Position numbers and translations under genes: made by a program
IMG/VR virus record: IMGVR_UViG_3300025073_000054
Span: 1 to 61,672 of that record
Source: a virus
Taxonomy: Duplodnaviria; Caudoviricetes
Reading direction: 5' to 3' (one strand)
Length of the DNA: 61,672 nucleotides
In this document: in pieces, positions 1,954 to 44,951 of the stretch
Position numbering within the stretch: the first letter of the stretch is position 1
Layout: each line of letters begins with the position of its first letter
Notes under the pieces: generated by a model
What the model was told of the DNA's origin: nothing
Seen by the model: only the letters and a program-made list of their open reading frames with translations
Database searches by the model: none

Positions 1954-2046
1954 GGAGAGCCGCACGCCGCAGGACGCGGGGCGGTGGGCAGCGGGGCCGT
2001 CAGGGCGACGGTGCTGCGGGGAGGTGGGCGTAGGATGGAGGCGATG

Positions 2047-2448
2047 ATGGACTACGAAGAGCGAGCACGGATCGAGCGGGAGCGGGAGCGCAACATCCCC
2101 GCGGAGGTCGTGCGCGAGTGCGGGCGCAGCGCGCATCTGATGGCGGCAGCGCGCTGGTACATCCAGGGCGCTGACGATGCGTGGCTGCGGTGCTTCGATG
2201 GCCTGCGGGCCGACTGCGAGCGCCTTGCCGGAGAGTGCGAGCGTCGCGGCTTGGTGATGACGCTACCCGTGGCCGAATGGCCCGCGGCGCACGTCTACCC
2301 CGGCGATGCGATGACCCGTGAGCAGGCGGCGGCGCTACTCCACGCGGCCGATACGCAGCGGTTGCTGTTCGACGCCGTGTGTCGGCTCGTGATGTTCGAC
2401 CCGATCGTGGTGCGGGTCGTCAAAATAGACGAAGCCCCGCCGGGGTGA
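2047..2448 (+). CDS. Hypothetical protein
   Basis: GGAGG RBS at 2037-2041; 3' end runs into the terminator hairpin. Confidence 0.5.
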   Translation: MDYEERARIERERERNIPAEVVRECGRSAHLMAAARWYIQGADDAWLRCFDGLRADCERLAGECERRGLVMTLPVAEWPAAHVYPGDAMTREQAAALLHAADTQRLLFDAVCRLVMFDPIVVRVVKIDEAPPG

Positions 2449-2461
2449 GCGACGGGGCTTC
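2422..2461 (-). terminator. Intrinsic terminator, possibly bidirectional
   Basis: GAAGCCCCG...CGGGGCTTC stem followed by GTCTATTTT on the minus strand; convergence point of two operons. Confidence 0.75.
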
Positions 2462-2665
2462 GGTGCGCGGGCTCCGGCCGCGTCGGGTCGATCCGTGGTC
2501 GCTCGGGCACGCCCTGCGGTGACGGTCGACGATTTGGCAGAAGGGCGCGGTCACATGAGGTGCCTCCGAGGTGGCACGCGGGCGCATCGGTCCGCGCGGG
2601 CTCTCTCGCCGATCCGGTGCGCCGCTCCCGGTGGCATAGCGGCACGAGGGCCGTCTGTCGCGTAG
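2425..2665 (-). ncRNA. Candidate structured small RNA (~240 nt)
   Basis: TTGACG-17-TGTGAT promoter upstream, several hairpins, terminator downstream, no convincing ORF. Confidence 0.45.
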
Positions 2666-2670
2666 CCCGC

Positions 2671-2699
2671 ATCACACCGCGCTCGCGCCCGCGCGTCAA
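2671..2699 (-). promoter_or_regulatory. Sigma70-like promoter
   Basis: TTGACG (2699-2694), 17 bp, TGTGAT (2676-2671). Confidence 0.5.
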
Positions 2700-2760
2700 G
2701 AGAACGCCGGGGCAGTGCGGCCACCTCGCGGCGGCCCCGGCCCCGGAAGGCGTCAGCGTA

Positions 2761-2877
2761 TCACGGCCACCAGCCGCGGAAGGCCCACCCGAGCAGTGCG
2801 TCGCCGATGCGGCGCAGCAGCTCCACGGGGCCGTGCGAGAGCAGCACGTCGAGGGCGCGAGCGAGCGCCCGCCTCAC
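2761..2877 (-). CDS. 38-aa amphipathic peptide (not in ORF track)
   Basis: MRRALARALDVLLSHGPVELLRRIGDALLGWAFRGWWP; coupled to the upstream ORF. Confidence 0.45.
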   Translation of the reverse strand: MRRALARALDVLLSHGPVELLRRIGDALLGWAFRGWWP

Positions 2878-3035
2878 GCGGCCCCCGGGGCGTCGCACGG
2901 CGGCAACGGGCCGTCGCCCGGTGCCCCGTCGGGCGCACGCCAGTGCCCATCGGCGAGGCGCCTGCGGTGGCAGCGGGCGCAGGTGTGCGACCGCGGGCCG
3001 GTGGGGAGCCAGCGGTGGGCGTCGAGGGAGGTCAC
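2874..3035 (-). CDS. 53-aa hypothetical protein (not in ORF track)
   Basis: GTG overlaps the endolysin stop; H...CxxC...C motif. Confidence 0.45.
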   Translation of the reverse strand: MTSLDAHRWLPTGPRSHTCARCHRRRLADGHWRAPDGAPGDGPLPPCDAPGAA

Positions 3036-3817
3036 ACGGCCCCGCTGGGGATGCGGCTGGCGTCGTCGAAGTGCATCAGGTCCGCGGAAGACGCAGCCCC
3101 GAAGTCACAGCCGCCCCACCGCATTCCGCCCACGTCGCAGAGAGCGACCACGACCGCGCGGCGCAGGTCCATCAGCCCCTTCGCCGGGTTGCGGGTCAGA
3201 CGCGGGCGGGCGACCGGCTGGCCCACGACGAGCGGCACCCGGAGCGCCTGGTAGTCGGCCATCACCTGCGCTGGGATCGTGACCCCGGGCAGCGTGTCGG
3301 CCTCGCCCGCGTCGAGATCGTCGACCGCGGGGAAGTACGGCGCGAGGTACACCCGCACCGCCTCGGAGACGACGTGCCAGCGGTCCCACACGCTCGCGGT
3401 GCTCTCGCCAGCGCGGCGGGCGCTGAGGTCGCAGAGCACCCCAGCGGCGGCGCACGCCCGGCCGCAGGCGGCGATGAACGTCTTGCGGACCCCGGGCAGC
3501 TTCGCGCCGGCCGACTCGCCCCCGTAGACCAGCCCGCGGGCGGTGTGCGTGGCGCAGACGGCGTACCCGTTGCGCGAATAGTTGATGTCAATCGCGCGGC
3601 CCTTGCCGTGGTAGCCCGCGCCCTCGCGGTAGCCCCCGACGCCGCGCACGCCATGCCACGCGACGAACGTCGGTTGCTCCGACGCGGGGAGGGTCAGCAT
3701 CTCCTCGAGGTACACATCGCGGAGCGCGGCCTCGACGCGAGCGAGCTTCGCCCCGAAGGCACGGGAGACGCGCGGCGAGCGCCCGAGGAAGGGCGCCGCG
3801 ACGAGGTCGAGCGTCAC
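3032..3817 (-). CDS. Endolysin, M15-family Zn peptidase
   Basis: HGKGRAIDIN (H-x6-D) and WGG...DLMHFD motifs of M15 peptidases; end of late operon. Confidence 0.8.
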   Translation of the reverse strand: MTLDLVAAPFLGRSPRVSRAFGAKLARVEAALRDVYLEEMLTLPASEQPTFVAWHGVRGVGGYREGAGYHGKGRAIDINYSRNGYAVCATHTARGLVYGGESAGAKLPGVRKTFIAACGRACAAAGVLCDLSARRAGESTASVWDRWHVVSEAVRVYLAPYFPAVDDLDAGEADTLPGVTIPAQVMADYQALRVPLVVGQPVARPRLTRNPAKGLMDLRRAVVVALCDVGGMRWGGCDFGAASSADLMHFDDASRIPSGAV

Positions 3818-4443
3818 CGGAACGCCCCCGCTTCGATCAGCTCGGGGTGCGTCGCCCGCAGCCACGCGAGCACGTCCACGGCGATCGTGAGCGGCGGGCA
3901 GAGCCCAGAGGCCATCGTCGTCAGGTGCGACTCGAGCACGCCCCGACCCAGCGCCACCTCGTCGGCCGCGAGGTGGTAGGTCTCGCTCGACAGGGACGCC
4001 AGCGCCCCGTCGAGCGTCGGGAGCATCCCCGTCAGCAGGTAGCCGACGAAGAGCCCCACCGCGTAGGCATCGGCCTCGGCGCGGGCGCGCAGCTCGGGGG
4101 AGGCCACGTAGTCGATGGAGGTGCGGACGGCGCCGCCCTCGTCGAGCTGCTTGTCGTGCTGGAACTCGTGGCTGACCGTCATCGCGTACCGCAGCGGGTC
4201 GGCCACGGCGGCGGGGGAGAGGACGATCACCGTCCCGGCGGGCGTGGGCACGGTGACACTGACGCGGCTGGCGCGCACCTCGAGCTCCGCGGCGAGTCCA
4301 GCGAGGGCGGGCACGGCGCGGGCGAGCGCGGAGAGCATCGCGCGTGCGGCGACCGCGGGCGCATCGTCGGGTGTAACGACGAGGGCGCCGTGCTTGGCGG
4401 CGAGGTGGGCGCCGAGGGCTTCGGAGACGTCGAGGGTCAGCAT
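3814..4443 (-). CDS. Putative zincin metallopeptidase
   Basis: SHEFQH (HExxH) with downstream RAEADAY glutamate. Confidence 0.65.
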   Translation of the reverse strand: MLTLDVSEALGAHLAAKHGALVVTPDDAPAVAARAMLSALARAVPALAGLAAELEVRASRVSVTVPTPAGTVIVLSPAAVADPLRYAMTVSHEFQHDKQLDEGGAVRTSIDYVASPELRARAEADAYAVGLFVGYLLTGMLPTLDGALASLSSETYHLAADEVALGRGVLESHLTTMASGLCPPLTIAVDVLAWLRATHPELIEAGAFR

Positions 4444-4757
4444 GGGCGGAGGACTCCAGCGGTGAGGTAGCCGTGCCAGCCGCAGCCGTGCGGCGCGGCG
4501 TGGTGGATGGACGGGGAGAGCGAGAGCCCGACGCCGGTGCGCGGATCGCCCGCGGTGACGGTCCACGACGGGCCTCCCGCGCGCGGTCCGACCGGGAGGT
4601 GCGACTGCGACCCGCAGCCGGGGCACGCGAAGATGAAGCCCGCGGGCTCGCGCTCGCTGTTCACCAGCGGCTGCGCGTCGCCCGGCGTCGCCGGATCGTG
4701 GTCGGGGAGGTCTTCGACGATGCGTAGGGGCACCGTGCGTCGGAGGTCGATGGTCAC
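4437..4757 (-). CDS. DUF6527-like small Cys/His protein
   Basis: FACPGCG...W...LSLSPSI...CGWHGYLTAG pattern. Confidence 0.7.
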   Translation of the reverse strand: MTIDLRRTVPLRIVEDLPDHDPATPGDAQPLVNSEREPAGFIFACPGCGSQSHLPVGPRAGGPSWTVTAGDPRTGVGLSLSPSIHHAAPHGCGWHGYLTAGVLRPC

Positions 4758-5050
4758 CGGCTGACCTCGTCGTCGAGCGCGGACCAGTCCGTCGCGAGGA
4801 TGTCCGTCTGCGACGCGAGCCACGGGACCAGCTTGCAGTCGACGGTCTTCATCGCGATGAACGGGAGCCACGTCCCGATCGCCGCCGCGCCCTCACGGAG
4901 CGCGAACTCGCGATCGTTGTAGAGGTCGACGTAGCGGATCCACATCCCCTTGCCGTTCCACCCGGCGCGCTGGACGCGGATGCCCCGGCGCATGAAGGCG
5001 AGGGCGGTGCCGAAGTCGAAGCCGCGATCCGCGGCGATGCCAGCGCTCAC
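4754..5050 (-). CDS. tad2: Tad2/DUF2829-family anti-defence sponge protein
   Basis: FDFGTAL...RVQRAGWNGKGMW...PFIAMKTVD..LVPWLASQTDILATDW matches the DUF2829 consensus. Confidence 0.85.
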   Translation of the reverse strand: MSAGIAADRGFDFGTALAFMRRGIRVQRAGWNGKGMWIRYVDLYNDREFALREGAAAIGTWLPFIAMKTVDCKLVPWLASQTDILATDWSALDDEVSR

Positions 5051-5805
5051 AGCGCACCCCCTTCCGACGCATCCGCAGCGCCCGCATCGGTCACGGGGCC
5101 GCAGTACGCGCGCCCGCCGAGGACGGTGCAGACCCCGCCTACCTGCGAGCACAGGAGATTCCCCGCGACGTGCCAGCGCTGCGACGCGCTGCACACGTGG
5201 GGGCGGTCGTTGATGCAGGTCTGCGCCTCGGGCTGGCAGCCGCTCACGGGAGGGTTGCGCGGACACCCCGCGAGCAGCGCGCCCGCGAGGATCGCGGCGA
5301 CGATGCAGGTGAGCAGCCCGGGGAGGTCGACGCTCCCCCGCTGCCCGTCGTCACGCATCGGCGGCACGACGGTCTGGCGGGCGTGCGGGTCGAAGGGCGG
5401 CTCGCTCTTGCGCGGGTCGACGGTCACCGCGCCGATGACGCGGCGCTGCGCGTCGAAGGCCACGCCGTCCGCGGGCGTCGGGTGCGGCGGCTCGGGGGCG
5501 CGGGTGGCGTGGACGTCGAGCGCGCCCTGCTTCTCCGCAGGGAGGGCGATGCCCAGCGGCGGGAGCGAGGAGCGCGCGGCGGCGTACTCGCGCCACGCGA
5601 CGACGAGCTTGCGGAGGTGCGGCGAGACGGTGCGGATGGCGCGGACGATGAGCGCGCGGCCGGGGTGGGCCTTGGCGTAGGCGTCCCAATGCTCGGGGGT
5701 GTCCCACCACAGCCACCACGACAGGGCGGCGCCGACGATGGGCCAGACGATGAGGGCGAGGATCAACGGCCAGTAGGGCCGCGCGAGGTCGAGGGCGTGT
5801 TGCAT
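5047..5805 (-). CDS. Membrane protein with internal lipobox and Cys-rich tail (holin/spanin candidate)
   Basis: N-terminal TM, second hydrophobic helix ending LLAGC, six further Cys. Confidence 0.6.
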   Translation of the reverse strand: MQHALDLARPYWPLILALIVWPIVGAALSWWLWWDTPEHWDAYAKAHPGRALIVRAIRTVSPHLRKLVVAWREYAAARSSLPPLGIALPAEKQGALDVHATRAPEPPHPTPADGVAFDAQRRVIGAVTVDPRKSEPPFDPHARQTVVPPMRDDGQRGSVDLPGLLTCIVAAILAGALLAGCPRNPPVSGCQPEAQTCINDRPHVCSASQRWHVAGNLLCSQVGGVCTVLGGRAYCGPVTDAGAADASEGGAL

Positions 5806-5807
5806 GA

Positions 5808-6689
5808 CTAGGTTCCTTCAGTGAGCGAGAGCGGACCCGCGCCGATCTCTTCGGAGGCGGGGTAGGACATCCACAGTGATTCGGTGCGGCGCTGGCCGCG
5901 GGTGTGGCGGGCGCTCTTGAGGGGCACGTCGAAGTCGACGCGACGCCAGCCCGCGTAGATGTCGTTGTAGAGGTCGGAGGCGTACCCGCTGACGCACACC
6001 CGCGCGCCACGCTCGACCGCCCCGCGGCAGGCGGCGGCGAAGCGATGGTGATCCTCGGTGGACGCGTCGTGGCGGTAGCCCCCGCCACAAGCCATCAACT
6101 CGGGGAGATAGGGCGGGTCGACGTAAACCATCGCGCCCTTACGGCCCCACTTCTCGATGAATGCTGCGCCGTCGATGCAGTCGATCGCCACATTGAGCAT
6201 CGACCGCGCATAGAGGTGGAGCGAATCGAGTTTCGTGGTGGCGCCCGACGGCCCCCACCCGCCCGCGGCGGTGTCGTGGCTGAGGGTGCGGCCCCAATTG
6301 CCGGGTGTTCGGGCGATCCCCGCGAACGCCTGCCGCCCAAGGACCCACACGCGCCGCGCCTCTTCCAGCGGGTCTTCGGAACGCGCCAGTGCCGCCGTGA
6401 ACTCCGTCAGTGAGTAGGGCGTGAGAGAGCACGCGCGCACGAGGTCTTCGGGGCGGTCGCGCAGCACGCGGAAGAACGTCACGAGCCGATCGTCAATGTC
6501 GTTGACCGCACGCCGCTGGTAAGCGGCGGCAGGCACGCGGAAGAACACGCTGCCTGCGCCCATACACGCCTCGACGTAGGTGGTCGCGTGGGCGAAGTGC
6601 GGGACGATCTTCTGGGCATTGGTGCCCTTCCCGCCGTACCGCTGGATCGGCCCGCCGCGGAGCTTCGTGGTATCGAGAGCGGCGTTCAT
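5808..6689 (-). CDS. DNA adenine methyltransferase (Dam/D12 class)
   Basis: YGGK, YVEACMGAGSV (SAM binding), VNDID, YVDPPY catalytic motif. Confidence 0.93.
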   Translation of the reverse strand: MNAALDTTKLRGGPIQRYGGKGTNAQKIVPHFAHATTYVEACMGAGSVFFRVPAAAYQRRAVNDIDDRLVTFFRVLRDRPEDLVRACSLTPYSLTEFTAALARSEDPLEEARRVWVLGRQAFAGIARTPGNWGRTLSHDTAAGGWGPSGATTKLDSLHLYARSMLNVAIDCIDGAAFIEKWGRKGAMVYVDPPYLPELMACGGGYRHDASTEDHHRFAAACRGAVERGARVCVSGYASDLYNDIYAGWRRVDFDVPLKSARHTRGQRRTESLWMSYPASEEIGAGPLSLTEGT

Positions 6690-7279
6690 GGCGTGGCTCC
6701 GAGCGCGGCGGTGATGTGGTCGACGATGCGTGCGCGGTCGATGGGCTTCCGCATCGCGACCGCGCCCACCTTGTGAGCAGCCGTGTCGAGCGCGTCGGCC
6801 TCTGCCACGCCGCTCATGAGCACGTCACCCTTGCGGCCGATGGCCGCGAGGACGTCGGCGCCGAGCTCGTCGGGCAGCATCAGGTCGCAGAGCACCGCGC
6901 CGCAGTGGTGCAGCGACATGATCCCGCGGGCCTCCGCGCCGCTGCGCGCTTCGTACACCGGCAGCGACAGCGCCTCGCGGAGCATCGCGGCGAGGAGATG
7001 GCGGCAGCCGTCGTGGTCGTCGACGACGAGGATGGAGCGAGAGCGCGCGGCGACGGGGGCGGGCGCGGGCGGCGTGAGGCTGTGCCTGATGCGGTTGCCG
7101 AGCACATCGAGCGTCGGGCCGAAGAGCCGCAGGGTGACGCCGACGACGGCGCCGCCGATGAGCCCACCGACCCAGCCAGGGAGGTGGGAGAGGGACTCGA
7201 TCGCGTGGCCGCCGATGCCGGCCGCGGTGAGCTCCGCGAGGAGCACTGCCCACCAGGGAGAGGGAGCGTGGTCGCTCAC
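6686..7279 (-). CDS. Membrane-anchored response-regulator receiver (CheY-like) protein
   Basis: Two hydrophobic N-terminal segments, then ILVVDD, CDLMLP (phosphoacceptor D), LMSG, RKP. Confidence 0.85.
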   Translation of the reverse strand: MSDHAPSPWWAVLLAELTAAGIGGHAIESLSHLPGWVGGLIGGAVVGVTLRLFGPTLDVLGNRIRHSLTPPAPAPVAARSRSILVVDDHDGCRHLLAAMLREALSLPVYEARSGAEARGIMSLHHCGAVLCDLMLPDELGADVLAAIGRKGDVLMSGVAEADALDTAAHKVGAVAMRKPIDRARIVDHITAALGATP

Positions 7280-8271
7280 AGCCTCCGCACCCGTCGCATC
7301 GTCGAGACGCCGTTGATCGTGAGGGGCGTGGCGTTGCCGATGGCCTCGTGCTGCGCGACGCCAGCGGGAGCCCGCGACGCCAGCCAGGCGTAGGTGCACG
7401 TCGCCGCGCCGGGGCTGCCCGGGATCAGCGAGGCGTAGGCCCCGCTCATCGTCGCGAGCCCTGCGTCGCCAAGGAGCGTCGACCACGATTGCGCCCACGC
7501 GAGGGAGCCGTTGATCCACGGCACAGCCGCCAACTGGTAGTTGCCGAGGATGAAGTAGGCATCGCTCGCGGGGACGGTGTACGTGCCCGACGTCGCAATG
7601 GTCGCCGCCGCGCCGCCGTTCAGCGACCATGTGAAGCTCAGGTCATCGGCTGCGATGTCGAGGGCGATCGTGTTGCCGCCGGTCACCACCGCCTGCGTCC
7701 CGAGCTCGACCTTGGCGACCGCACCCGGGCCGGTGATCCCGGTGCGGAGGAAGTACAGGTAGCCGCTGCTGCCCGTCGCATTGACGCCGAGAATCCACCC
7801 GTTGCCCGAGCTCTGGTACGACGCGAGGATCTGCTCCGTCGCGGGCACGGAGTCCTGGTGGAAGCCCACGGCGATGCTCTGCCCACCCGCGAGCGTCGGC
7901 CCGACGGCGGTACCCGGCGACGCCGAGACGATGCCCGACACCGTGTAGGCCGCAGCCGCCGTCATCGGCCCGAGGGTGACGCCGAGGCGGTCGGCGCCGG
8001 CCACGCGCCACGTCCCAGCGACCGCGCTCCACAGGAGTGCGTCGTGGTCGGTGGCGAGGAAGGAGTCACCCGCCGCGGGAGACGCCGGAGCCGCGCCGAG
8101 GGTGCCCGCGCCGTAGGTGCCGCCAGCGCCCGCAGGCCCCGCAGGCCCCGCAGGCCCGGTGGCGCCCGTCGCCCCGGTAGCACCCGCGGCGCCCGTCGCT
8201 CCCGTCGGGCCAGCAGGCCCCACGCCCGGCGCTACGAGCGCGCCGCCGCCGTTCGGATCGATGCCGCTCAC
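7276..8271 (-). CDS. Tail fibre/receptor-binding protein: collagen-like repeat plus LamG-like domain
   Basis: (GxT/GPA)n repeat; beta-rich C-terminus with WSLNG...FILGN...WINGSL. Confidence 0.65.
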   Translation of the reverse strand: MSGIDPNGGGALVAPGVGPAGPTGATGAAGATGATGATGPAGPAGPAGAGGTYGAGTLGAAPASPAAGDSFLATDHDALLWSAVAGTWRVAGADRLGVTLGPMTAAAAYTVSGIVSASPGTAVGPTLAGGQSIAVGFHQDSVPATEQILASYQSSGNGWILGVNATGSSGYLYFLRTGITGPGAVAKVELGTQAVVTGGNTIALDIAADDLSFTWSLNGGAAATIATSGTYTVPASDAYFILGNYQLAAVPWINGSLAWAQSWSTLLGDAGLATMSGAYASLIPGSPGAATCTYAWLASRAPAGVAQHEAIGNATPLTINGVSTMRRVRRL

Positions 8272-8741
8272 GTCTCACCGCCCATCGTGAGCACGGTCAC
8301 GGCGCCGCGGTCGGTGGTGTCGACGTCCGTCATGCGGACGCGCATCCAGTGGTACCCGCGCACGTCCCAGAGCGGCGTGCCGCGCGTGGTGGTGCCGGTG
8401 GCCGTCGGGAGCGCGGCGAAGGCCTCGGGGTAGCCGTCGATGGCGCCCGTGGCGAAGCTCGATCCGTCGAGGATGTAGATGGGCACCCAGCTCGCCACGC
8501 TCGCGGCGGCGGTGTCAGGCGAGTCCATCGACCCGTCCACCGCGAAGACCGGCGCGCCGGTGATGCTCAAAGCGTTGCGCGCGTACTGGCACACCAGGCG
8601 CGCGTACTGGAGCGAGCCGAGCTTGATCGCCCCCGACGTGGCGTTGGCGGCATCCGAGGCGGCGGTCCCGACGACGGTAGCGAGCGAGGCGGTGAGCGAG
8701 TACGACGCGGCGCGCAGGCCGATGGTGGGGATCTTGGCCAT
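8268..8741 (-). CDS. Putative virion protein
   Basis: Beta-rich, lies between fibre genes, GGAG RBS. Confidence 0.6.
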   Translation of the reverse strand: MAKIPTIGLRAASYSLTASLATVVGTAASDAANATSGAIKLGSLQYARLVCQYARNALSITGAPVFAVDGSMDSPDTAAASVASWVPIYILDGSSFATGAIDGYPEAFAALPTATGTTTRGTPLWDVRGYHWMRVRMTDVDTTDRGAVTVLTMGGET

Positions 8742-8777
8742 GGGGGCTCCGGGGAGGGGAGGTCAGCAGGAGAGGGA

Positions 8778-8814
8778 GCGCACGGCGCGAGCGCCGGGGC
8801 TGCGCGCCGTGCGC
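8778..8814. terminator. Strong intergenic hairpin
   Basis: GCGCACGGCGCG / CGCGCCGTGCGC 12-bp stem; no clear U tract. Confidence 0.4.
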
Positions 8815-8824
8815 CGGTGGGAGA

Positions 8825-10240
8825 TCAGGTCAGGCCGGTGCCGCCGTGCGTGTGCGAGGCCCCGCGCAGGATCTTGTACGTACCCGCGTCGGTGGTCGGC
8901 GCGAGGCCGTAGACGGTGAGGACGGCGGGAGCGCCGGTGACGGCGGTGTTGCTCACGATGAGGCACGGGGCCTGGGTCGCGGTGATGAGCCACATCCCAG
9001 CGCACTCGTTGAGCGTCATCGTCTGGTTGTCCGTCGTGGTGACCACCTGCCCCGCGGTCGCGAAGCCGGTCCCGGCGAACGCCTCGGCGGTGGCGGTCGG
9101 AGCCGCGGCGGCGGTGGTGCCGCCGATGGCGCCGTAGGCCGGAGCCGCACCGACGCCGCCGCTCTTGAGCACCTGCCCCACGGCCACGTCGGGCAGCGGC
9201 GCCATGGTGGTCGCACTATCGGCCACGAGCAGATCGCCGGTGGCCTGCGTTGCGTGCGCGAGGTGCACGGGGTTGAGCTTGTCGGCCACGGTGCCGACGA
9301 GGACGTTCGACCCGACGGTCAGCGTGGAGCCGAGCAGCAGCGCGCCGCCGAACTTCACGAGCCCATCGGTCACCAGCAGCGCGTACGCGTTGGTGAACGT
9401 GGCGTTGGCGCCCGCGATGGGAGCGCCCTCGATGTTGACGGTGGCCGCGTGCGTGACGACGCTCGCGCCGACGAAGCCGTAGGTGGGCGCGGTGATGACC
9501 ACGCCCCGCTGAGCCGCGAGAGCGCCCGTGGCCCACTGCCGCGTCGCAGAGAGGTTGAGGTGGACGCTCGGTGCCTCGGTGCCCGCGGTGATGAGCAGGT
9601 CCGCGCCGGCGGTGACCGCGAGGGCCGCAGCGGGGGTGCCCGAAGCCGACGCGGTGGGGGCGACGATCGGGGCGGCGGTGAAGGTCTGCACCCCGCTGAC
9701 GGACTGCGCCGCCTCGAGGAGCGCCACGGTGCCCGACGCGATGGCCGGGAGCGTGTGCTGCTGCGCGGCGGTGGGTCCGACCGTCCCGGCGATCACCGCA
9801 CCGTCGAAGCGGGAGGCGCCGTCGTCCACCCACAGCGCGTAGCTGTTGGTGATGGTGGCGTTGGTGCCCGCGGTCGGCGCCGCGTCGATGTAGAACGTCG
9901 CGGCGTTGGTGATGGTGGACGCACCCGCGAAGGCGTAGGTGGGCGCGGCGACCTTGAACGCCCGCTGCGACGTGATGGCGCCGGTGGCCCAGGTCCGCGT
10001 GGCGCTGAGGTTGAGGTACACCGAGGGCGACTCAACCGTCGTGGTGATGGCGAGGTCGGCGGCGGCGGTCACGGTCAGCGGGACCGTGGGCGTACCCGAC
10101 GCGGACACGGCAGGTGCGATGGCTTGCGAGCCCTCATCGACGGTGGCGCCGGTGAAGGTCACGGTGCCCGTAAACGTGTTGGCTCCAGTGAAGGTGTTGT
10201 TGTCGTCGAGGCCTGCGGCGGTCACGAATGAGCTGGGCAT
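8825..10240 (-). CDS. Tail fibre protein with internal ~100-aa duplication
   Basis: NTFTG repeats, A/T/G-rich; LNLSATRxWATGA...APTY occurs twice. Confidence 0.75.
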   Translation of the reverse strand: MPSSFVTAAGLDDNNTFTGANTFTGTVTFTGATVDEGSQAIAPAVSASGTPTVPLTVTAAADLAITTTVESPSVYLNLSATRTWATGAITSQRAFKVAAPTYAFAGASTITNAATFYIDAAPTAGTNATITNSYALWVDDGASRFDGAVIAGTVGPTAAQQHTLPAIASGTVALLEAAQSVSGVQTFTAAPIVAPTASASGTPAAALAVTAGADLLITAGTEAPSVHLNLSATRQWATGALAAQRGVVITAPTYGFVGASVVTHAATVNIEGAPIAGANATFTNAYALLVTDGLVKFGGALLLGSTLTVGSNVLVGTVADKLNPVHLAHATQATGDLLVADSATTMAPLPDVAVGQVLKSGGVGAAPAYGAIGGTTAAAAPTATAEAFAGTGFATAGQVVTTTDNQTMTLNECAGMWLITATQAPCLIVSNTAVTGAPAVLTVYGLAPTTDAGTYKILRGASHTHGGTGLT

Positions 10241-10310
10241 GGCAGTGCTTTCTTGCGAGCCGTGCGGCGTCGCGATGGGGTGCGGTGGAGGCGGTGGAGG
10301 CGGTGGAGGG

Positions 10311-10853
10311 CTACGGGCGCTTGCCGGTCTTGGCGGTGGCGTGCACGGTCAGCGTGGGGCGGCGGATCGCGACGCCCGTGTCGTTGTAGAGGTAGAGCGA
10401 GCCGGTCGTCGGGTCGGCGTAGAGCCAGACGTTCGTGATGACCTGGATGGCCCATGACGTCGTGGATGCGGGGACGGGCGGCACGCCTGCGGAGACGGCA
10501 ACCGACGCCGCTCCGAGCGCGCCGGTCCCGGTGTACCCGCGGCGCATCACGAGGTCGTAGTCGAGGAGGTAGTCGTTGACGCCACCCGGCTCCTGATCCG
10601 AGCCCGACGGTACGCTCCACGCGACCGTCAGCATCCGGTCGCGGTAGTCCGTCGCACCGTCGATCTTCACCAGCGTGCCCGTGGCAAAGTCCGCGGTGTC
10701 GTACATCCATTCGACGATGACGACGCCGTCCCCGAGCGTGGTGTGCGTGTTGTTGGAGTTGGCGGTCACCAGCCCCGCGGCGCGCGTCTGAATGTCGTTC
10801 AGCTCCGCCGCGAGGATCTGTTGGTTGGCGACGTAGGTCTGGACAGCTTGCAT
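10311..10853 (-). CDS. Tail fibre-associated protein
   Basis: MQAVQTYVANQQILAAELNDIQ fibre-anchor-like N-terminus; follows baseplate gene. Confidence 0.6.
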   Translation of the reverse strand: MQAVQTYVANQQILAAELNDIQTRAAGLVTANSNNTHTTLGDGVVIVEWMYDTADFATGTLVKIDGATDYRDRMLTVAWSVPSGSDQEPGGVNDYLLDYDLVMRRGYTGTGALGAASVAVSAGVPPVPASTTSWAIQVITNVWLYADPTTGSLYLYNDTGVAIRRPTLTVHATAKTGKRP

Positions 10854-11455
10854 CAGAGCACCGTGTTGTTCGTGAGGGAGGCGGCGTCGTTGCAGTAGAA
10901 GCCGACCATCTGCTTCGACGTGAACACCGCCTTGGTGTGCGCGGGCTTCATCACATCGACCACGCTGGCGAGGGGCGCGATGGTGGGCGCGTCGTTGGGG
11001 TCGCGCGCGGTGTAGATCGTGAACGCGAACACCCTTGGCGGGTTGGCGTGCGAGTCGATGGCAGCCGTCTCGCGCATCGTCGGCGCGACGTCGTTGTTGA
11101 GCGGCGTGAGGGCGCTGATGATCGCATCGGGCGACCCGGAGAAGCGCGTGCGCCATCGGGCGAGAAGCGCGGCGCGGCGCTCTGTCGTCGTGAGACGGCC
11201 CGAGCTCACATGGAGCCCGAGCATCGTCTCCCATCCATCCAACAGGGCGGTGGCGTCGCGAGGAAACGCCTCCGCGAGCGAGTTGACGTTGGTGTCGCGG
11301 GAGTCGCTCAGCGCGGTCGCGAGCGCCACGGCGTCGGCCGCGTTGGTGCTGAGATCCGCCGCCGGGTACGCAGGCCCCATTAGGCGCAGGTGCATCCGTG
11401 CGATGTCCCCGATGGCGCCTTCCTTCGTGGGCAGAGGCTGGATGACGTTCGCCAT
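10853..11455 (-). CDS. Baseplate wedge protein (Mu gp48/DUF2313-like)
   Basis: EAFP..A..LLDGWETMLGL...ERRAAL...KPAHT motifs. Confidence 0.85.
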   Translation of the reverse strand: MANVIQPLPTKEGAIGDIARMHLRLMGPAYPAADLSTNAADAVALATALSDSRDTNVNSLAEAFPRDATALLDGWETMLGLHVSSGRLTTTERRAALLARWRTRFSGSPDAIISALTPLNNDVAPTMRETAAIDSHANPPRVFAFTIYTARDPNDAPTIAPLASVVDVMKPAHTKAVFTSKQMVGFYCNDAASLTNNTVL

Positions 11456-11500
11456 GAGGTGTCAGGCCGCGCGGAGGGCGCAGGAATGCCGTTGCTAGAG

Positions 11501-11533
11501 AGGGTGGATGTCCGAATGGTGGGAGCGCAAGAG
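11501..11533 (-). promoter_or_regulatory. Putative late promoter, copy 2
   Basis: CTC-TTGCGC, 18 bp containing ACCATTCGGACAT, CACCCT; same element at 33245-33257. Confidence 0.65.
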
Positions 11534-11539
11534 GGCGAC

Positions 11540-11566
11540 GACTGACCCCGGAACCCGGGGCCAGTC
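11540..11566 (-). terminator. Hairpin after the antirepressor-like gene
   Basis: GACTG-A-CCCCGG-AAC-CCGGGG-C-CAGTC. Confidence 0.45.
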
Positions 11567-11580
11567 CCGCGGCGGTCGGG

Positions 11581-12459
11581 TCAGTTGGTCGAGGGGGCGA
11601 GGGCGAAGCGCCCCTGGTTCGCGCGGAGGTTGGCGGCGTGCACGTCGATCGCGCCGTCGAGCCACATCGCAAGCTGACGCTGCGCCACATCGAGGAGCCG
11701 ACGCGGGAGCATCGACCACGCGGACCCCGGGCCGTGGTGCCCGAGGATGGAGCGGAGCTTGTTCTCGGCGCGGCGACGCTCGGAGCGTAGGGCGCGCTTC
11801 GTCTGCGCCCGCAGGGCGGCGACGCGGCGGAGGGGCGTCACGATCTCCGTCATGGCGACCACCGGGCCGACAACGCCCGTGGAGACGTCGGCGCGCAGGG
11901 CGGCGACCTCGGCGCTCATGGCGGCGACCTGCGCCACGAGCTGCGGCACGACCGCGAGCGAAGCAGCGATGGCGCGGGCCATCTCCGGGTCGAGCCCCAC
12001 CGGGGCGGGGGCGGACGGGCGCTGGCGGTCGATCACCGCGTCGAACACCCGCACCATGAGCTCGGTCAGCTCCCACGCGCGGGGCGTGTCGGACTGCGTT
12101 GCGACGAGAAGGGTCTGCTCGCGGGTGAGCCAGAACTCGTTGACGATGATCTCGCGCGTGCCGCCCGTCGGGGTTTGCGAGCGCCCCACCGTGGGGCGCA
12201 CGTCGAGAGCGCGGAGCTTGCCCTCCTTGACCATGCGCTTGATGAGCTCGCGCACCTTGCGAGGGCGCTCGAAGCCCAGCCACGCGGCGAGGTCGAGGTC
12301 ACGCACGCGCGGCTTGTGGTCGCTGCCCTCGGCGGACAGCGGGAGGTTGATGCCACCGGGGAGGTGGGCGATCCATCGGCCGGGGGCCACCGGCTCGACG
12401 TCGAGCGGGACCTCCTTGCCTTCGGGCTGCTGATCGTGGTTCTGATCGTGAGTCGTCAT
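11581..12459 (-). CDS. Phage antirepressor-like DNA-binding protein
   Basis: PRVRDLDLAAWLGFERPRKVRELI...EFWLTREQ.L......SDTPRA...MVRVF N-terminal domain plus coiled coil. Confidence 0.75.
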   Translation of the reverse strand: MTTHDQNHDQQPEGKEVPLDVEPVAPGRWIAHLPGGINLPLSAEGSDHKPRVRDLDLAAWLGFERPRKVRELIKRMVKEGKLRALDVRPTVGRSQTPTGGTREIIVNEFWLTREQTLLVATQSDTPRAWELTELMVRVFDAVIDRQRPSAPAPVGLDPEMARAIAASLAVVPQLVAQVAAMSAEVAALRADVSTGVVGPVVAMTEIVTPLRRVAALRAQTKRALRSERRRAENKLRSILGHHGPGSAWSMLPRRLLDVAQRQLAMWLDGAIDVHAANLRANQGRFALAPSTN

Positions 12460-12590
12460 GGGAGGGTCGTCCTGTGATGGCTGGCCCGTGCGACGTGTGA
12501 GCGTCGGCGGGCCGTTCTATGTGGGCCACGCGGCAACGGCCGCGCTTCGGTACGTCGCTCGACGGAATGCCGTGCGGGGTAGGTCTTGAG

Positions 12591-12926
12591 TCACGCCCGA
12601 GCGTGGGCGCGGATCACCGGCAGCAGGTCCACCGCGAGGGCGGCGACGTTGCGGGGGTCGCGCGACCACTCATCGAGCTCGCGCACGTCGCGGGTCTGCT
12701 CCGTCCGCCGGGGCGTCGCGAAGCGGAGCGCCGCGACGAGGGCGCGGTGAAACTTCGGGTCGGCGGCGCTGCGGGGCGCCATCGAGAGCGCGAGGCCGCA
12801 GACCGTGCGCCAGTGCTTGGGCATCGGAGCGGGGGCGCCCTTCTGCCACTGGCGGTCGATCTTGTGGACGAAGCGAGCGGTGCGCCGGTCGGCCGCAGTG
12901 GCCGTGGTCTTCGTGGTGGTCATCAC
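12591..12926 (-). CDS. Hypothetical protein
   Basis: Coupled to 12923-13126. Confidence 0.5.
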   Translation of the reverse strand: MMTTTKTTATAADRRTARFVHKIDRQWQKGAPAPMPKHWRTVCGLALSMAPRSAADPKFHRALVAALRFATPRRTEQTRDVRELDEWSRDPRNVAALAVDLLPVIRAHARA

Positions 12927-13126
12927 GCCACCGCCCGCAGGCTGGAGACGCCACAGGACACCGGGCCGGGGCGGTCGCTGTCGACCGAAGCGAGAAAGGC
13001 CGCGCGCTCGTCGTCGAGGGCAGCGTTGAAGACGGGGCAGGCCGCGAGCTCGGCCCAGCGGGCGCGCTCCTGGTGGGCGTCGAAGCTGAGGCGGCCGATG
13101 GTGAGGCAGGCGATGGTGGTGAGCAT
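12923..13126 (-). CDS. Hypothetical protein
   Basis: GGAGG RBS; downstream of the promoter at 13164-13192. Confidence 0.55.
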   Translation of the reverse strand: MLTTIACLTIGRLSFDAHQERARWAELAACPVFNAALDDERAAFLASVDSDRPGPVSCGVSSLRAVA

Positions 13127-13163
13127 GGTTCCCTCCGTCGGGGCTCCATGCCCCGGTGAAGAG

Positions 13164-13248
13164 AGCCTAGGTCAGTGTCTAGACACGGTCAAGACATCGC
13201 TTGTCGTTTCTTGCTCGCCTTGCGTAGTAGCTAGCTCATGGCTAGGCT
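13164..13248. promoter_or_regulatory. Divergent promoter pair with palindromic operator
   Basis: Minus: TTGACC-17-TAGGCT with GTGTCTAGACAC (13175-13186) in the spacer; plus: TTGCGT-17-TAGGCT (13220-13248). Confidence 0.75.
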
Positions 13249-13256
13249 CCGCCGTC

Positions 13257-13478
13257 ATGCCCGCGAAGAAGCCTGCTACGAAGTCCGCCAAGCCCGCCCG
13301 TGACCGAAGCGGAGCCCTGTACGTCTTGCTGGAGCCGGAGCAACTCGCGTCGCTCGACGGGTGGGCAGAGCGCCTCAACGAGGGCAACACGGGGCCGCAG
13401 TGGAACCGCACGGCGGTCGTGCGCGCCATCGTGGCGCGGGCGCTGACCGAGCGCGGCGCGAAGGGCGAAGCCCCGTAG
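13257..13478 (+). CDS. Ribbon-helix-helix regulator
   Basis: ALYVLLEPEQLASLD...NRTAVVRAIVARAL; likely leaderless. Confidence 0.75.
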   Translation: MPAKKPATKSAKPARDRSGALYVLLEPEQLASLDGWAERLNEGNTGPQWNRTAVVRAIVARALTERGAKGEAP

Positions 13479-13519
13479 CCGTTGACCGCCCCTCCCCCGG
13501 CGGGCGTAGCGTTGTGGGG

Positions 13520-39168: not shown

Positions 39169-40174
39169 GGGCGGCTCCCTGGGGGTCGTTGTCGGGGAAG
39201 GACTTCGCGGCGGCGAGAGCACGGACTTCGGCGAGGGCGGCGCGCACGTCCTCGCGGCTCGCGGGGTTCACCACGGGGACGCCGATCACGCGCTGGACAG
39301 GCAGCGAAGGCTGCCTCGGTGGGGTGATGTCGATGACACCCGATGCGAGAGGCGACGGCGCCTCGGAGTCGCTGCGGCCGAGCCAGCCCAGAAGGAACGC
39401 GCGCCCGTCGCGCTTGGGCTTCGTCTGCCCTGCGTTCCACGTTGCGGCGCGGAGAACCTGGCCGAGCACGTTGACGCCGGGGAAGGCGTTAGGCGCAGTC
39501 ACGCGGGTTGCGAAGTCGGCCACGCGCTTCGTGCACGGCGGCTTGAGCAGTGGGTCCGTCATGATCGCATCGAACACCGCTCGCGCCCTCGGGTCGGCGG
39601 GCGGGGCCTCGTCAACGGGTGCCTTCGGCTGGAGAACCCTGGGCGCTGGCCGGGGCGGCGGAACGTCGACCCCGGCTCTCTCCGGGTTCTTCTCTTCTGG
39701 TGACGGAGATGGTGACGGAGCCGGAGGAGGGCGATCGTCTTGCGAGTTTGCGACTCCCACTTGCGATCCGTCGCTGCGATCCGTTTGCGATCCGTTTGCG
39801 ATGCTTTGCGATCGACCACCCCACCGCGCTTCGTTGCCCTTGCGACCGGCCTCGCTTCGCTTGCGACCGATCTCCTCACGTCGGGCGGCGCGCTGCTCTT
39901 CGGTCCAGTTCCAGTCATGGAAGTCGTGGACGCGCCATCCGACACCGGGCTCTACGTCCCACAAGCGAGCCGACACCAGCCGCTCGATGAGCTGGTCAAC
40001 GACGCGCTGGGGCTTCGACGTGAAGCCGCGCACGGCGCCGGTGCGGATCACCCCGCCGAGTCCGTACTTGTTGCAGTAGATGACCGAGCGCATCCACAGG
40101 TCGGTGGCGTCCTCGCCCGCCTCAACCATCTTCGGGTGCGAGAGCACCCCATCATCAAAGGTGGACTTCGTCAC
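39155..40174 (-). CDS. Replication initiator protein
   Basis: DD....HPK...G..A..LW...LV...LW.....W.VHDFHDWN N-domain; PSPSPSP linker; internal iterons; upstream of dnaB. Confidence 0.8.
   Translation of the reverse strand: MTKSTFDDGVLSHPKMVEAGEDATDLWMRSVIYCNKYGLGGVIRTGAVRGFTSKPQRVVDQLIERLVSARLWDVEPGVGWRVHDFHDWNWTEEQRAARREEIGRKRSEAGRKGNEARWGGRSQSIANGSQTDRSDGSQVGVANSQDDRPPPAPSPSPSPEEKNPERAGVDVPPPRPAPRVLQPKAPVDEAPPADPRARAVFDAIMTDPLLKPPCTKRVADFATRVTAPNAFPGVNVLGQVLRAATWNAGQTKPKRDGRAFLLGWLGRSDSEAPSPLASGVIDITPPRQPSLPVQRVIGVPVVNPASREDVRAALAEVRALAAAKSFPDNDPQGAAHASR
39740..39866. repeat. Iteron cluster, probable replication origin
   Basis: Eight TTGCGA plus one CTGCGA, including tandem TTTGCGATCCG units. 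Confidence 0.75.
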
Positions 40175-41010
40175 CCCGCGCCTCCCACTTCCCGAATGAA
40201 AGCCAACAGCGCCGCCGAGGGGCGGAACCACTCACCGTCGGGGCGCACCCGGTCGGCAGCAAAGAGCGTGTGTAGCGACCGCTCCACCGCGAGCCCGCCG
40301 ACCATCCGGCCGATGATCTTCAGCGGGTGCGCGTGCGCGGTCTGGAGCGTCGAGAGGCGGCCGACAGGGTTGGCGCTGTATCCGATCTTTACCGGCCCGC
40401 CCTGTGTCGACTGGATGAAGTAGACCCAAGACGTGGGCGCCCGCTCCTGCACCTCGACGATGGACTTGCAGCCCATGCACTGCCCGCATCCGGTGGTCGT
40501 GTCGCCCAGGTGCACGATCACGCCGCCAGGGTGGCACTTCCAGACCAAGATGGCGCCGGACTCTCCGGCGATAGGCAGCACGACCGGGTCGCCATGGAAC
40601 CCGAGCTCATCGCCGAATGACGCGACAACCCCGTCCATTGCGAACTCACGAACATTGCGGAGCCAGTGAAAGCACCGCAGGCGCGAGTCAGACGGATCGG
40701 TTTTGATCGTCGCGAGATGGGCGTTATGCCCACCGTCGGTGTCGTATGAGATCAAACCGCCGAAGTAGTCTCCGGCGGCAGAGTAGAGGTTGGCGCTGAA
40801 TTCCCCATCGATATCTCGAACCGCCGGAGCGCCATCGACCAAGCGAACGGCGAACTCTAGCCGCATCGGTGGCTCTGCCGCGACGAACACATCATCGTCG
40901 CCGATGAGATGATCGCCAAGGCCCTCGTCATCGTCCACAGGGCCGATGTCATCGGGAAGCGAAGGGAAAGCCGCGTCGACCCAGGCGAGATTCTCTTCGA
41001 GAGTGTTCAC
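40171..41010 (-). CDS. GIY-YIG (T5orf172/MUG113-like) domain protein
   Basis: VYFIQ...VKIGYS..P..RL..LQT...E..LH..F...GEWF; lower GC than flanks. Confidence 0.85.
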   Translation of the reverse strand: MNTLEENLAWVDAAFPSLPDDIGPVDDDEGLGDHLIGDDDVFVAAEPPMRLEFAVRLVDGAPAVRDIDGEFSANLYSAAGDYFGGLISYDTDGGHNAHLATIKTDPSDSRLRCFHWLRNVREFAMDGVVASFGDELGFHGDPVVLPIAGESGAILVWKCHPGGVIVHLGDTTTGCGQCMGCKSIVEVQERAPTSWVYFIQSTQGGPVKIGYSANPVGRLSTLQTAHAHPLKIIGRMVGGLAVERSLHTLFAADRVRPDGEWFRPSAALLAFIREVGGAG

Positions 41011-41110
41011 GGGCGCCTCCGATTCCGCGCGGCGCACGATGCGCTATCGCCGGTAGCCGGAGGATGCCCTATCCCATCATTGTTAGCAAGTTCGCTATGT
41101 CGACAATCGA

Positions 41111-41539: not shown

Positions 41540-42878
41540 TCATGCGGGCCTCACAGCGGCCACGCGCACCCGCCGCACCGGGACGCCCGCGAGCATCCTG
41601 GGGATCAGCGTGGTGCCCACCTTCGCGCGCTGCGGGAGGTAGACGACAAGCTCCCCATCGCCCGCCCCGACCGTGACGCCGGGGATGGTCTTCACGAGGT
41701 GCGCTTGCAGGCGCGCGGCGAGCTCGTCGTTGCTGAGGTAGACGCTCACGCCGCCCTCCGCGCTGCGTCCCGCCGTGCGAGCTCGAGCGCCCGCAGCCAC
41801 CACCACACGCCGTCGCCCGCGGTGTCGTCGCGCCAGTAGCCGACGCGCACGGGGGTCCACCCCGCCGCGAGCAGCTCGGCGCTCTCCCCCACGGAAGGGA
41901 GCCGCAGCGGGCAACGCACGACGCGCTCCACAGCGGGCGTCACGGCGCACCCCGCAGGCGCCAGCGACCCTGCGCCCCGCGCTCGACGAGGCCCGAGCGC
42001 TGCATCCGGTGCACCGCCGCATCGGGCGCCACCCCGAGGGCGCGTGCGACGTCGCGGGTGGCGTGCACGAGCCCGTCGGCGAACACATCCGCGACACCGG
42101 GGCGAGGCCCACGCGTAGGCCGCACGGGCGCCACCACGGGACGCGGCTGCGGGGCGGTGTGCCACGGCCAGCGCCCGAGGGTGGCAGCGTCGCGGGGGTG
42201 CGAGACCACCGGGGGCGGGACGTCGCGCCAATCGTCGGGGAGGGCGGAGGTCATCGCTCGCCCCGCAGTCGAGCCGCGAGCCCGTCGAGCGCTGCGTCAG
42301 CGGTCGCGCCCGTCGCTGCGGCGCACTCCTCGACGCCCTCGCCCGTCGTCGTGTAGACGCACGCCGCGGCGACGTACTCCCCCGAGTCGCAGCGGGTGAC
42401 GCGCACCGATCGCTTGCCGCGACCGGGGAGCCGGAGCGCGAGGGCCGCGGCGGTGTCCCACAGGGCGGCGCTCACGTCGTCACTCGGCACGCTGCGGCGA
42501 TGTCCACCGCGCTGGCGTCGAGCGCACGGCAGAGGGCCGCGGCGTCGCGCTCGGACAGCGACGGAGGGAGAGCCGCGAGGGCGGCGGCCACAAGGCGCTG
42601 GTGACGCGCGAGGGCGTCGGCGCAGGCGGCGACGCGGGGGCAGCGGAGGATGGTGATCATCGGTCCCACCGCCCCGGCACGCGACGCCACCCGAGGCGCA
42701 GAGCGCGGAGCTTCCAGCGGTACGCCTCGTTCTCCGCCACCCACCGCGCGTGGTCGGCTTCGTAGATGCGCTGCGCCACGTCGTGGGGGTCGCGCACCGG
42801 GGCGTTGACGACGCCCGCGCGGTAGCCGAGCCAGAGCCCGACGAGACCGACGATGAAGGTGGCGAGGATGGTGATCAC
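41540..42878 (-). other. Cluster of small coupled hypothetical genes (41540-41749, 41746-41943, 41940-42254, 42251-42490, 42472-42660, 42657-42878)
   Basis: Overlapping start/stop codons; one TM peptide, one wHTH-like. Confidence 0.5.
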
Positions 42879-44777: not shown

Positions 44778-44951
44778 CTACGCTCCAGCCGCCGACGCCG
44801 TAGCGCCCGCCGCGAGCGAGCCGACGCCCGCGATGATGGCGCCCACGAGGCTCGCGACGGTGAAGCCGCCGAGGATGAGGAGCGCGGCGCCGACGAAGAA
44901 CGCGGCCAGCGCCGCAGCGTGGCGAGGGTGCGCGCGGAGGAGGGGGAGCAT
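44778..44951 (-). CDS. 57-aa membrane protein (not in ORF track)
   Basis: MLPLLRAHPRHAAALAAFFVGAALLILGGFTVASLVGAIIAG...; AGGAG RBS. Confidence 0.55.
   Translation of the reverse strand: MLPLLRAHPRHAAALAAFFVGAALLILGGFTVASLVGAIIAGVGSLAAGATASAAGA

Follow-up and report, generated by a model that had tools for sequence, protein, structure and literature searches.

Tuning of lysis time to the condition of the host is known in few systems, namely lysis inhibition in T4 and N4 and the S107/S105 ratio of lambda, and to our knowledge none of these uses two-component chemistry. The gene analysed here, at 6686-7279 on the minus strand of the viral record IMGVR_UViG_3300025073_000054 (61,672 bp, the whole of which is called the window below), encodes a helical hairpin fused to a response-regulator receiver domain (hairpin-REC), and several described systems can be set beside it. 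In S21 68, the pinholin of phage 21, the second transmembrane domain (TMD2) bears a glycine zipper, and added N-terminal positive charges convert the protein to an antagonist (PMC9025707). Phage N4 possesses a pinholin, gp63, and a lysis regulator, gp62, whose cytoplasmic parts are proposed to receive the regulatory signal; gp62 has two TMDs and both termini in the cytoplasm (PMC12642591). A CheY-like gene lies just downstream of the tail fibres in the Alteromonas phages V22 (gp30), A5 (gp11) and P24, where it was described as having no DNA-binding output, as part of a module common to unrelated phages, and was classed as auxiliary without experiment (PMC10579305, PMC7289586). In a bacterium, the LytSR system ties a phosphorelay, which includes acetyl phosphate, to the holin-like Cid/Lrg membrane proteins (PMC4830213).

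The product of hairpin-REC, 197 aa in length, begins with a short acidic head, which is followed by two hydrophobic helices; a Pro/Ala linker then leads into a complete receiver. Our reading, held tentatively and with slightly more doubt than conviction, is that it is a holin or a holin regulator of the antiholin type in a lysis module, in which the cytoplasmic tail has been replaced by a receiver. A first-pass annotation of this DNA had already described the two hydrophobic stretches, the linker and the complete receiver, and all of them were found (translation; PF00072, 48.3 bits). Translation begins at a GTG (7279) that forms the overlap GTGA with the stop codon of the preceding gene, and at the other end the TGA stop (6686-6688) and the ATG of the following gene overlap. 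A longer open reading frame (ORF) at 6686-7630 was rejected as an over-extension, since 28/28 aligned homologues begin at the M/V-S-D-H position. The G+C content at third codon positions (GC3) is 0.91 for the true gene, about 0.91-0.95 for its neighbours and 0.85 for the Dam gene; a low GC3 value, which would have pointed to recent acquisition, came from the use of the over-long ORF.

The Pfam match to PF00072 spans residues 83-189 of the protein and exceeds the cut-off of 30.2 bits (E 1.3e-12), and a search for REC within the record gave 49.9 bits (E 1.6e-14). Structure modelling agreed with the earlier assignment: in the AlphaFold2 (AF2) model, the domain is a complete (beta-alpha)5 receiver, with five strands and five helices in order (predicted local distance difference test, pLDDT, 73-95), and Foldseek found at least 404 PDB receiver chains at E<=1e-3, with a TM-score (target) of 0.73-0.79 for single-domain receivers. 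The catalytic residues noted before are all in place, as D87, D88, the phospho-acceptor D132, S156 and the pair K178-P179. Conservation was analysed in 44 full-length hairpin-REC sequences, a set that includes distant members from the profile search and the loci L023 and L033. D132, S156, K178 and P179 are each present in 44/44, and the two acidic positions vary once each (D87, 43 D and one E; D88, 43 D and one A). D132, S156 and K178 are retained even where the REC of a relative is only distantly similar, and the position equivalent to the aromatic switch is Ala in 37 of the 44 and Pro in seven. The pairwise ratio of nonsynonymous to synonymous substitution (dN/dS) of REC was 0.16-0.46 across eight loci; an outlier of 0.65 was obtained between two near-identical loci with a dS of 0.03. 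These alignments indicate that the receiver is under selection for phospho-chemistry, and phosphorylation itself is predicted.

Neither HATPase_c nor HisKA was detected in the record, which is ~77% complete, in agreement with the earlier statement that no histidine kinase was found in it; hairpin-REC holds the one REC of the record, and a second was not found there. A word-indexed search returned 41 clusters, 38 of them with PF00072, all metagenomic and mostly of 191-201 aa. The matches of REC in NCBIfam were to generic receivers and all far below cut-offs, and PADLOC gave no match for REC or for the module genes of no known family. Among cultured phages, neither a megablast search with 4500-9000 nor tblastn of the protein found anything at E<=1e-5, and when REC alone was the tblastn query, at E<=1, the 50,697 records yielded 12 weak and uninformative matches. 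The idea of an HPt/DHp role for His32 was discarded: there is no HisKA match, His32 lies in the turn of the AF2 model, and it occurs in just 32/44 sequences with the distant REC-fused members. Among relatives, four or more types of hairpin assort independently of two subtypes of REC (…GCRHLL…KGDVLMSG versus …GTRHLL…PGDVLTSG), which indicates recombination inside the gene near the linker. The linker varies in length among relatives; the stretch TPPAPAPVAA is present in the window protein.

A receiver with a complete and strictly conserved phospho-acceptor site, in a record without a phage kinase, would also suit a membrane-tethered single-domain response regulator that acts as a phosphate sink or decoy near host kinases and rewires late signalling, with the hairpin as just an anchor. 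The CheY-like genes after the tail fibres of phages V22, A5 and P24, proposed as auxiliary signalling genes (PMC10579305, PMC7289586), and a few other phage REC proteins in BFVD favour this explanation. The distribution of the hairpin argues against it. A profile of residues 1-78, built from nine sequences and run against 1.84 billion cluster representatives, gave 29 matches at E<=1e-3, among which 23 were proteins of 50-118 aa without REC, five were proteins of ~190 aa with REC, and one, P0067, had a hairpin running on into a lipobox-bearing domain. REC-less forms of 61-101 aa were also obtained in a short-protein search with residues 1-78. About 19 of the 23 short forms show two helices, a basic stretch and a Pro-rich or acidic tail, and the other four look truncated or recombinant. 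By these searches, the hairpin constitutes an independent protein family, whose members mostly stand alone and are of holin size. Since 23 of the 29 representatives are without REC, the receiver was added later to a small protein of membrane type; viewed by domains, this response regulator has the hairpin as its output.

The hairpin also carries motifs of its own that exceed the needs of an anchor. Helix 1 contains Glu16, the turn SHLPGW contains Pro34, and helix 2 contains G39/G43/G47 and is followed by a basic juxtamembrane stretch. In 68 family sequences, the residue at position 16 is E in 63 and D in one, Pro34 is present in 68/68 and the small-xxx-small-xxx-small pattern of helix 2 in 63/68. 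Because most representatives lack REC and the hairpin has these conserved motifs, the hairpin, and not REC, is the core of the protein. The natural REC-less and REC-truncated forms retain the hairpin, and the gene has a fixed linkage to a membrane protein and peptidase module (see below). On balance, a phosphate sink seems quite improbable. The variant proposed in the first-pass annotation, a sink that rewires the motility or development of a myxobacterial host, was weakened by the prevalence of hairpins without REC, and its myxobacterial premise found no support in the genomes sampled: the portal protein had matches of 29-40% identity only, in 11 of 401 Myxococcota genomes, and the hairpin profile gave three marginal matches (E ~6e-4) in 401 Myxococcota genomes and none in 401 Alphaproteobacteria genomes.

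Several further observations concern the hairpin family. The REC-less or REC-truncated P0036, P0040, P0044, P0046 and P0048 share the tail end …RETYARG…GQ, and in L006 (~3238) and L011 (~1226) this tail is encoded in another frame directly 5' of the hairpin-REC start, which suggests partial tandem duplications or recombination at the site; a second hairpin copy was found in none of the 13 sources searched. The similarity between P0067 and the 252-aa protein of the module consisted of low complexity and a short C-terminal part (E 0.007 and 0.16) and was not used as an argument for fusion. The ESM Atlas held no usable match for residues 1-78, and the stand-alone P0049 scored <=0.79 there. The viral-contig scan with the A4 stand-alone alignment was uninformative, the alignment being too divergent, and the matches of a genome-contig scan were set aside as unrelated receivers, L002 being the C-terminal REC of a hybrid kinase beside recA/alaS and L003 a REC-only match.

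The hairpin helices were placed by AF2 at residues 8-29 and 35-67, and their transmembrane (TM) character was judged by Kyte-Doolittle hydropathy in 71 sequences, with averaging lengths of 17 and 19 residues. In the window protein, the maximum of helix 1 was 1.22 over 19 residues and 1.47 over 17, and that of helix 2 was 1.52 and 1.77, respectively. Both segments are thus below the classic threshold of 1.6 over 19 residues, and this, together with the conserved Glu in helix 1 and the low pLDDT of the hairpin, would fit an N-terminus that is not inserted at all, a soluble or peripheral helical hairpin serving dimerisation or docking on an ordinary cytoplasmic receiver. Nevertheless, helix 2 reaches 1.6 in 66/71 sequences over 17 residues (median 1.77) and in 30/71 over 19 (median 1.55), with values of up to 2.36 in relatives. 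The charge asymmetry is that of an inserted protein, since 62/68 sequences are without K/R ahead of R51 and the following 25 residues hold a mean of 4.8 K+R, and the Gly/Ala-rich composition is typical of membrane helices. Moreover, the weak family matches at E<=1 are mostly, not solely, to membrane peptides or TM regions. Non-insertion is therefore very unlikely in our judgement. Of the two hydrophobic segments noted earlier, helix 2 is TM-like by this measure, whereas helix 1 is weak, reaching 1.6 in only 6/71 sequences over 17 residues. From the charge pattern and the positive-inside rule, the REC side is predicted to be cytoplasmic. The stand-alone forms end in acidic or Pro-rich tails, and a charged C-terminal region, as in holins, is present.

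On the minus strand of the window, the order of genes is tail-fibre-like gene, hairpin-REC, Dam methylase, 252-aa protein, Tad2-like gene, DUF6527 gene, 209-aa protein, peptidase, 45-aa ORF and terminator-like hairpin (Table 1). The gene had been called the first after the tail fibres, and the PHROGs and collagen-repeat matches of its upstream neighbour bear this out. Context was available for 11 loci, all REC-fused: the window, L004-L011, L023 and L033, of which L008-L010 are near-identical (gene calls came from a codon-bias script, and gene ends are approximate). In 11/11, hairpin-REC follows tail-fibre genes and precedes a TM/lipobox protein, and where the contig extends far enough this is followed by a protein of ~210-220 aa and then by a LAS-like peptidase or a peptidoglycan (PG)-binding protein. 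In L004 and L007, for instance, hairpin-REC is followed by a TM/lipobox protein of 241 aa and a protein of 222 aa, after which L004 has a peptidase and L007 a PG_binding_1 protein. L023 and L033 have tail genes unlike those of the window, placed before the same module headed by hairpin-REC, so the module moves as a unit; hairpin-REC heads it across at least three tail backgrounds. Positional homologues of the 209-aa protein, of 203-236 aa, were found in L004, L006, L007, L023, L030, L031 and L033.

This part of the genome could instead be a slot for morons or lysogenic-conversion genes, and the protein could have a REC-regulated, non-lytic job at the membrane, such as a block of superinfection or DNA entry or a change of the prophage envelope. 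The phage looks temperate, since its record encodes an integrase and a CII-like protein and has an HTH repressor-like gene, and the stretch is rich in accessory inserts (methylases, Tad2-like, DUF6527 and the second REC of L011). Divergence of the hairpin is rapid between types, with a dN/dS of 0.8-1.07 versus 0.24-0.5 within types, which is frequent in proteins that interact with the host. In addition, a gap of 139-217 nt, with room for a promoter, precedes the gene in 3/9 distinct contexts. In the other six, however, the late tail-fibre gene runs up to the start or overlaps it, and the GC3 is that of the backbone; the linkage to the TM/lipobox protein and peptidase module persists despite different tail genes; and no exclusion family was matched in Pfam, PHROGs or PADLOC. 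We consider such a non-lytic role unlikely. The start overlaps, the backbone-like GC3 and the terminator-like site together indicate late expression, and co-expression of hairpin-REC with the module, which stands last in the late operon, is likely on these features.

The junction directly after hairpin-REC is an insertion hot spot, which is empty in L004, L006, L007 and L023. It contains a D12 Dam methylase in the window and in L012 (201-1070), an unrelated 486-aa N6_N4 methylase in L008-L010 (L008 1765-3225; the same N-terminus in L009) and a 174-aa gene of no known family in L005 (11113-11637). In L011 (1135-2668), a hairpin-REC whose REC is cut after helix 3 is followed by a 112-aa single-TM protein and by a second REC protein of 180 aa, with a different REC, a helical N-terminus and no hairpin. 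The Tad2-like and DUF6527 genes sit between the TM/lipobox protein and the 209-aa protein; among the loci compared, they occur only in the window and in L006 (4571-5187), and L004, L007 and L023 are without both.

Holins are typically replaced non-orthologously. In L030, the same downstream module is present without REC, and the head slot is taken by a 72-aa membrane ORF of two hydrophobic helices, the one weak and the other strong, with a basic/Pro tail. This ORF has no detectable homology to the hairpin family (hmmsearch E 0.058; hhalign probability 10%). An unrelated small membrane ORF at the head slot is the pattern expected of a holin slot. In the same locus (3735-4309), the two halves of the 252-aa protein are encoded separately, as a TM protein of 90 aa and a lipoprotein of 101 aa that has a signal peptide of its own, a pair that, we assume, resembles the two-part spanins of diderm-host phages, although the match is atypical; the 252-aa protein would be either a gene fusion or an internally processed protein. 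A viral-contig scan with this protein found the L004 contig again and nothing else.

The 261-aa peptidase is the last large gene of the module. Its Pfam match to M15_4 is below the cut-off (20.6 bits versus 25, E 6.9e-4), and H70, D77, D246 and H249, which we take to be the LAS metal and catalytic residues (H-x6-D and D-x2-H motifs), are invariant in 30/30 sequences. The AF2 model is of high confidence (pLDDT 95.3). In a structural search, the top 12 of 24 VIA rows were all LAS-fold proteins, with weak but consistent Z values of 3.4-4.7, comprising VanX/VanY-type M15 enzymes, the phage endolysins LysB4 and Ply500, and Hedgehog; the best Foldseek E was 0.42, and PDB sequence searches with the peptidase gave nothing significant. 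The peptidase has no N-terminal hydrophobic segment or signal-anchor, which does not fit a pinholin plus signal-anchor-release (SAR) endolysin system. After the peptidase, a protein of 132-133 aa is encoded in L004 (12797-13195), L023 (8819-9220) and L030 (5765-6166), and the window lacks it; it has a hydrophobic segment (signal peptide) at the N-terminus and a conserved (F/W)(L/A)ESR motif, and could be a second, exported wall enzyme. This protein and the PG-binding protein of L007 fit a cell-wall module.

Several points weigh against a holin-type function. No holin family matched 21 stand-alone hairpin members, even at E<=1 (Pfam, PHROGs), or the window protein at E<=0.01. Nor did any match the ORFs scanned (103 with Pfam, 38 with PHROGs), as expected from the earlier remark that no canonical holin is recognisable. 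Holin families are many and mutually unrelated, so this lowers the case for a member of a known holin family, not the case for a protein that works like a holin. The TM strength is marginal by hydropathy, at just 1.52 for helix 2 of the window protein over 19 residues, and helix 1 is weakly hydrophobic across the family (median 1.19 over 19 residues, >=1.6 in 4/71); the hairpin was modelled by AF2 with low to moderate confidence (pLDDT 44-76). A dual-start motif is absent from hairpin-REC, which has one start and no second in-frame Met/Val/Leu in the first codons, although not all holins have this motif. When viral contigs were scanned with alignments of stand-alone hairpins, nothing was found with A5 and just the REC-fused L023 with A6.

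The surroundings add to these objections. Hairpin-REC is not adjacent to the peptidase, as two to five genes lie between them, the methylase, Tad2-like and DUF6527 genes among them; these intervening genes make the stretch also an accessory-gene hot spot, and the cassette, with a methylase and anti-defence-type genes inserted, is not purely lytic. The 252-aa protein, whose TM segments are far stronger than those of the hairpin, could itself be the holin. The assignment of the peptidase is of moderate strength. Finally, the CheY-like genes without TM segments that follow the Alteromonas tail fibres mean that a REC at this place need not be a sign of lysis. The earlier claim of a cassette ending in an M15 endolysin was upheld in that a LAS/M15-like enzyme ends the module, and not in that its Pfam match is sub-threshold and Dam, Tad2-like and DUF6527 genes interrupt the cassette. 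The proposed holin position gained from the stand-alone hairpin family, the place at the head of the module, the replacement in L030 and the strict conservation of the REC active site, and lost from the lack of a holin family and of an adjacent lysin. In favour of the holin reading, no small membrane ORF besides hairpin-REC was found in the module.

If hairpin-REC is a holin or holin regulator, helix 2 would span the inner membrane, helix 1 would also span it or switch location, and REC would lie in the cytoplasm. The hairpin would oligomerise through its Gly-zipper face and make or control a lesion that frees the signal-less peptidase to reach the wall. D132 would be phosphorylated by a host histidine kinase or by acetyl phosphate, the donors to be considered because the phage record encodes no kinase. 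Phosphorylation of REC would alter self-association, so advancing or delaying the triggering of lysis, and the timing of lysis would thereby be coupled to the signalling or energy state of the host. Gating by phosphorylation is what we infer from the conserved active site. The fuller proposal, that the holin of this phage group, or its built-in antiholin function, is itself a response regulator and that the lysis clock is set post-translationally by host kinases or acetyl phosphate, without transcription, through a REC fused onto an older stand-alone holin family, is rather doubtful.

The record is 72% G+C and classed as linear, and its genes include a Mu-like portal and protease, sheath and baseplate genes, a DnaB helicase and the integrase (Pfam/PHROGs). 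The features of the module are collected in Table 1.

Table 1. Features of hairpin-REC and of the surrounding module in the window.
Feature	Position	Strand	Evidence
N-terminal helical hairpin, codons 1-67	7079..7279	-	AF2, family statistics, hydropathy, stand-alone relatives
Pro/Ala-rich linker TPPAPAPVAARS, codons 68-79	7043..7078	-	translation; unstructured in AF2 model
Receiver (REC), codons 80-197	6689..7042	-	PF00072, AF2 fold, Foldseek, conservation
Tail-fibre-like gene, collagen-like repeats	7276..8271	-	PHROG tail-fibre E 7e-6 to 3e-3; collagen repeat match
D12-class Dam DNA adenine methyltransferase	5808..6689	-	MethyltransfD12 E 2.9e-19; phrog_56 E 1e-47; TIGR00571
252-aa membrane protein	5047..5805	-	hydropathy 2.15 and 2.34; alignment; synteny
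Tad2-like (Thoeris anti-defence 2-like) gene	4754..5050	-	PF11195 E 1.1e-20
DUF6527 gene	4437..4757	-	PF20137 E 6.8e-11
209-aa module protein with HEFQH motif	3814..4443	-	phrog_13834 E 2.3e-5; HExxH-type match E 1.3e-3, below cut-off
261-aa LAS/M15-like zinc peptidase, probable endolysin	3032..3817	-	M15_4 sub-threshold, invariant residues, AF2, LAS-fold matches
Conserved 45-aa ORF	2761..2898	-	71% identity over 35 aa to the 41-aa module-ending ORF of L023, E 3e-12
Terminator-like hairpin, 13-bp stem and T-run	2430..2462	-	consensus scan, pattern match

The 252-aa protein has a TM segment at residues 14-32, a basic loop, and a second TM segment at 161-179 that ends in the lipobox LLAGC and leads into a Cys-rich C-terminal domain; the alignment shows a conserved G-C and six Cys in this domain, and no Pfam, PHROG, NCBIfam or PADLOC family was found for the protein. 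The terminator-like hairpin would, by its position and pattern, end the late/lysis transcript. A scan of 2000-13500 for sigma-70-like sites found none against 0.4 expected, the scan being uninformative for a high-GC host, and no tRNA genes were found in the window. Elsewhere in the record, an ORF of 292 aa that lies amid the genes for baseplate and tail fibres (11581-12459, minus strand) has a weak match to the anti-repressor Ant (phrog_63, E 1.4e-6). The early region contains two proteins with a T5orf172/MUG113 domain (40171-41037 and 44951-45499) and an HNH endonuclease with a sigma-70 region-4-like helix-turn-helix (42875-43564, minus strand).

The exact sequence was present in groundwater and soil metagenome runs, possibly its own source. 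Four metatranscriptome libraries from three studies held contigs 85-95% like REC parts (6693-7052, 6785-7051 and 6995-7219), and the same libraries matched other module genes; DNA is possible in these libraries, and the contigs give neither level nor strand.

Phrase searches of the open-access literature, which are not proof of absence, returned no membrane-anchored or transmembrane response regulators, nothing relevant on phage-encoded response regulators or kinases, and no CheY-type fusion with a holin or antiholin; no description of a phage lysis module in which a receiver is joined to a hairpin family of the holin type was found in the open-access literature searched. If the reading is true, bacterial phospho-signalling or acetyl-phosphate levels would be linked directly to the lysis decision, and membrane hairpins would be a further kind of output domain for response regulators. 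Clean experiments are made possible by the series that nature provides, from stand-alone hairpins through REC-fused and REC-truncated forms to a non-homologous ORF that takes the slot in one relative.

When these data are set against the described systems, a likeness is seen to class II holins, S21 68 above all: two helices, an N-terminus without positive charge, a weak helix 1, a helix 2 of the glycine-zipper type and a charged cytoplasmic C-terminus. Hairpin-REC, known here from its sequence, differs from S21 68 in having no family match, a 118-aa receiver in place of a short tail, a peptidase without a signal-anchor and a lysin that is not adjacent. The mycobacteriophage proteins LysF1a and LysA2a, likened by description, are two-TMD holin-like lysis regulators without a receiver domain. 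N4 gp63/gp62 offers a precedent for cytoplasmic regulatory regions on lysis-timing membrane proteins; the 'Receiver domain' of N4, likened by description, is a short conserved region and not a CheY-like fold, and the signal is thought there to be superinfection, not phosphorylation. The Alteromonas CheY-like proteins are of ~147-149 aa, with an N-terminal REC and no hydrophobic hairpin, unlike the window protein; V22 gp30 was among the BFVD fold matches, and tblastn with the window REC did not reach these genes. In LytSR, the regulator controls the transcription of separate bacterial holin-like genes, whereas here the receiver is fused to the phage membrane protein.

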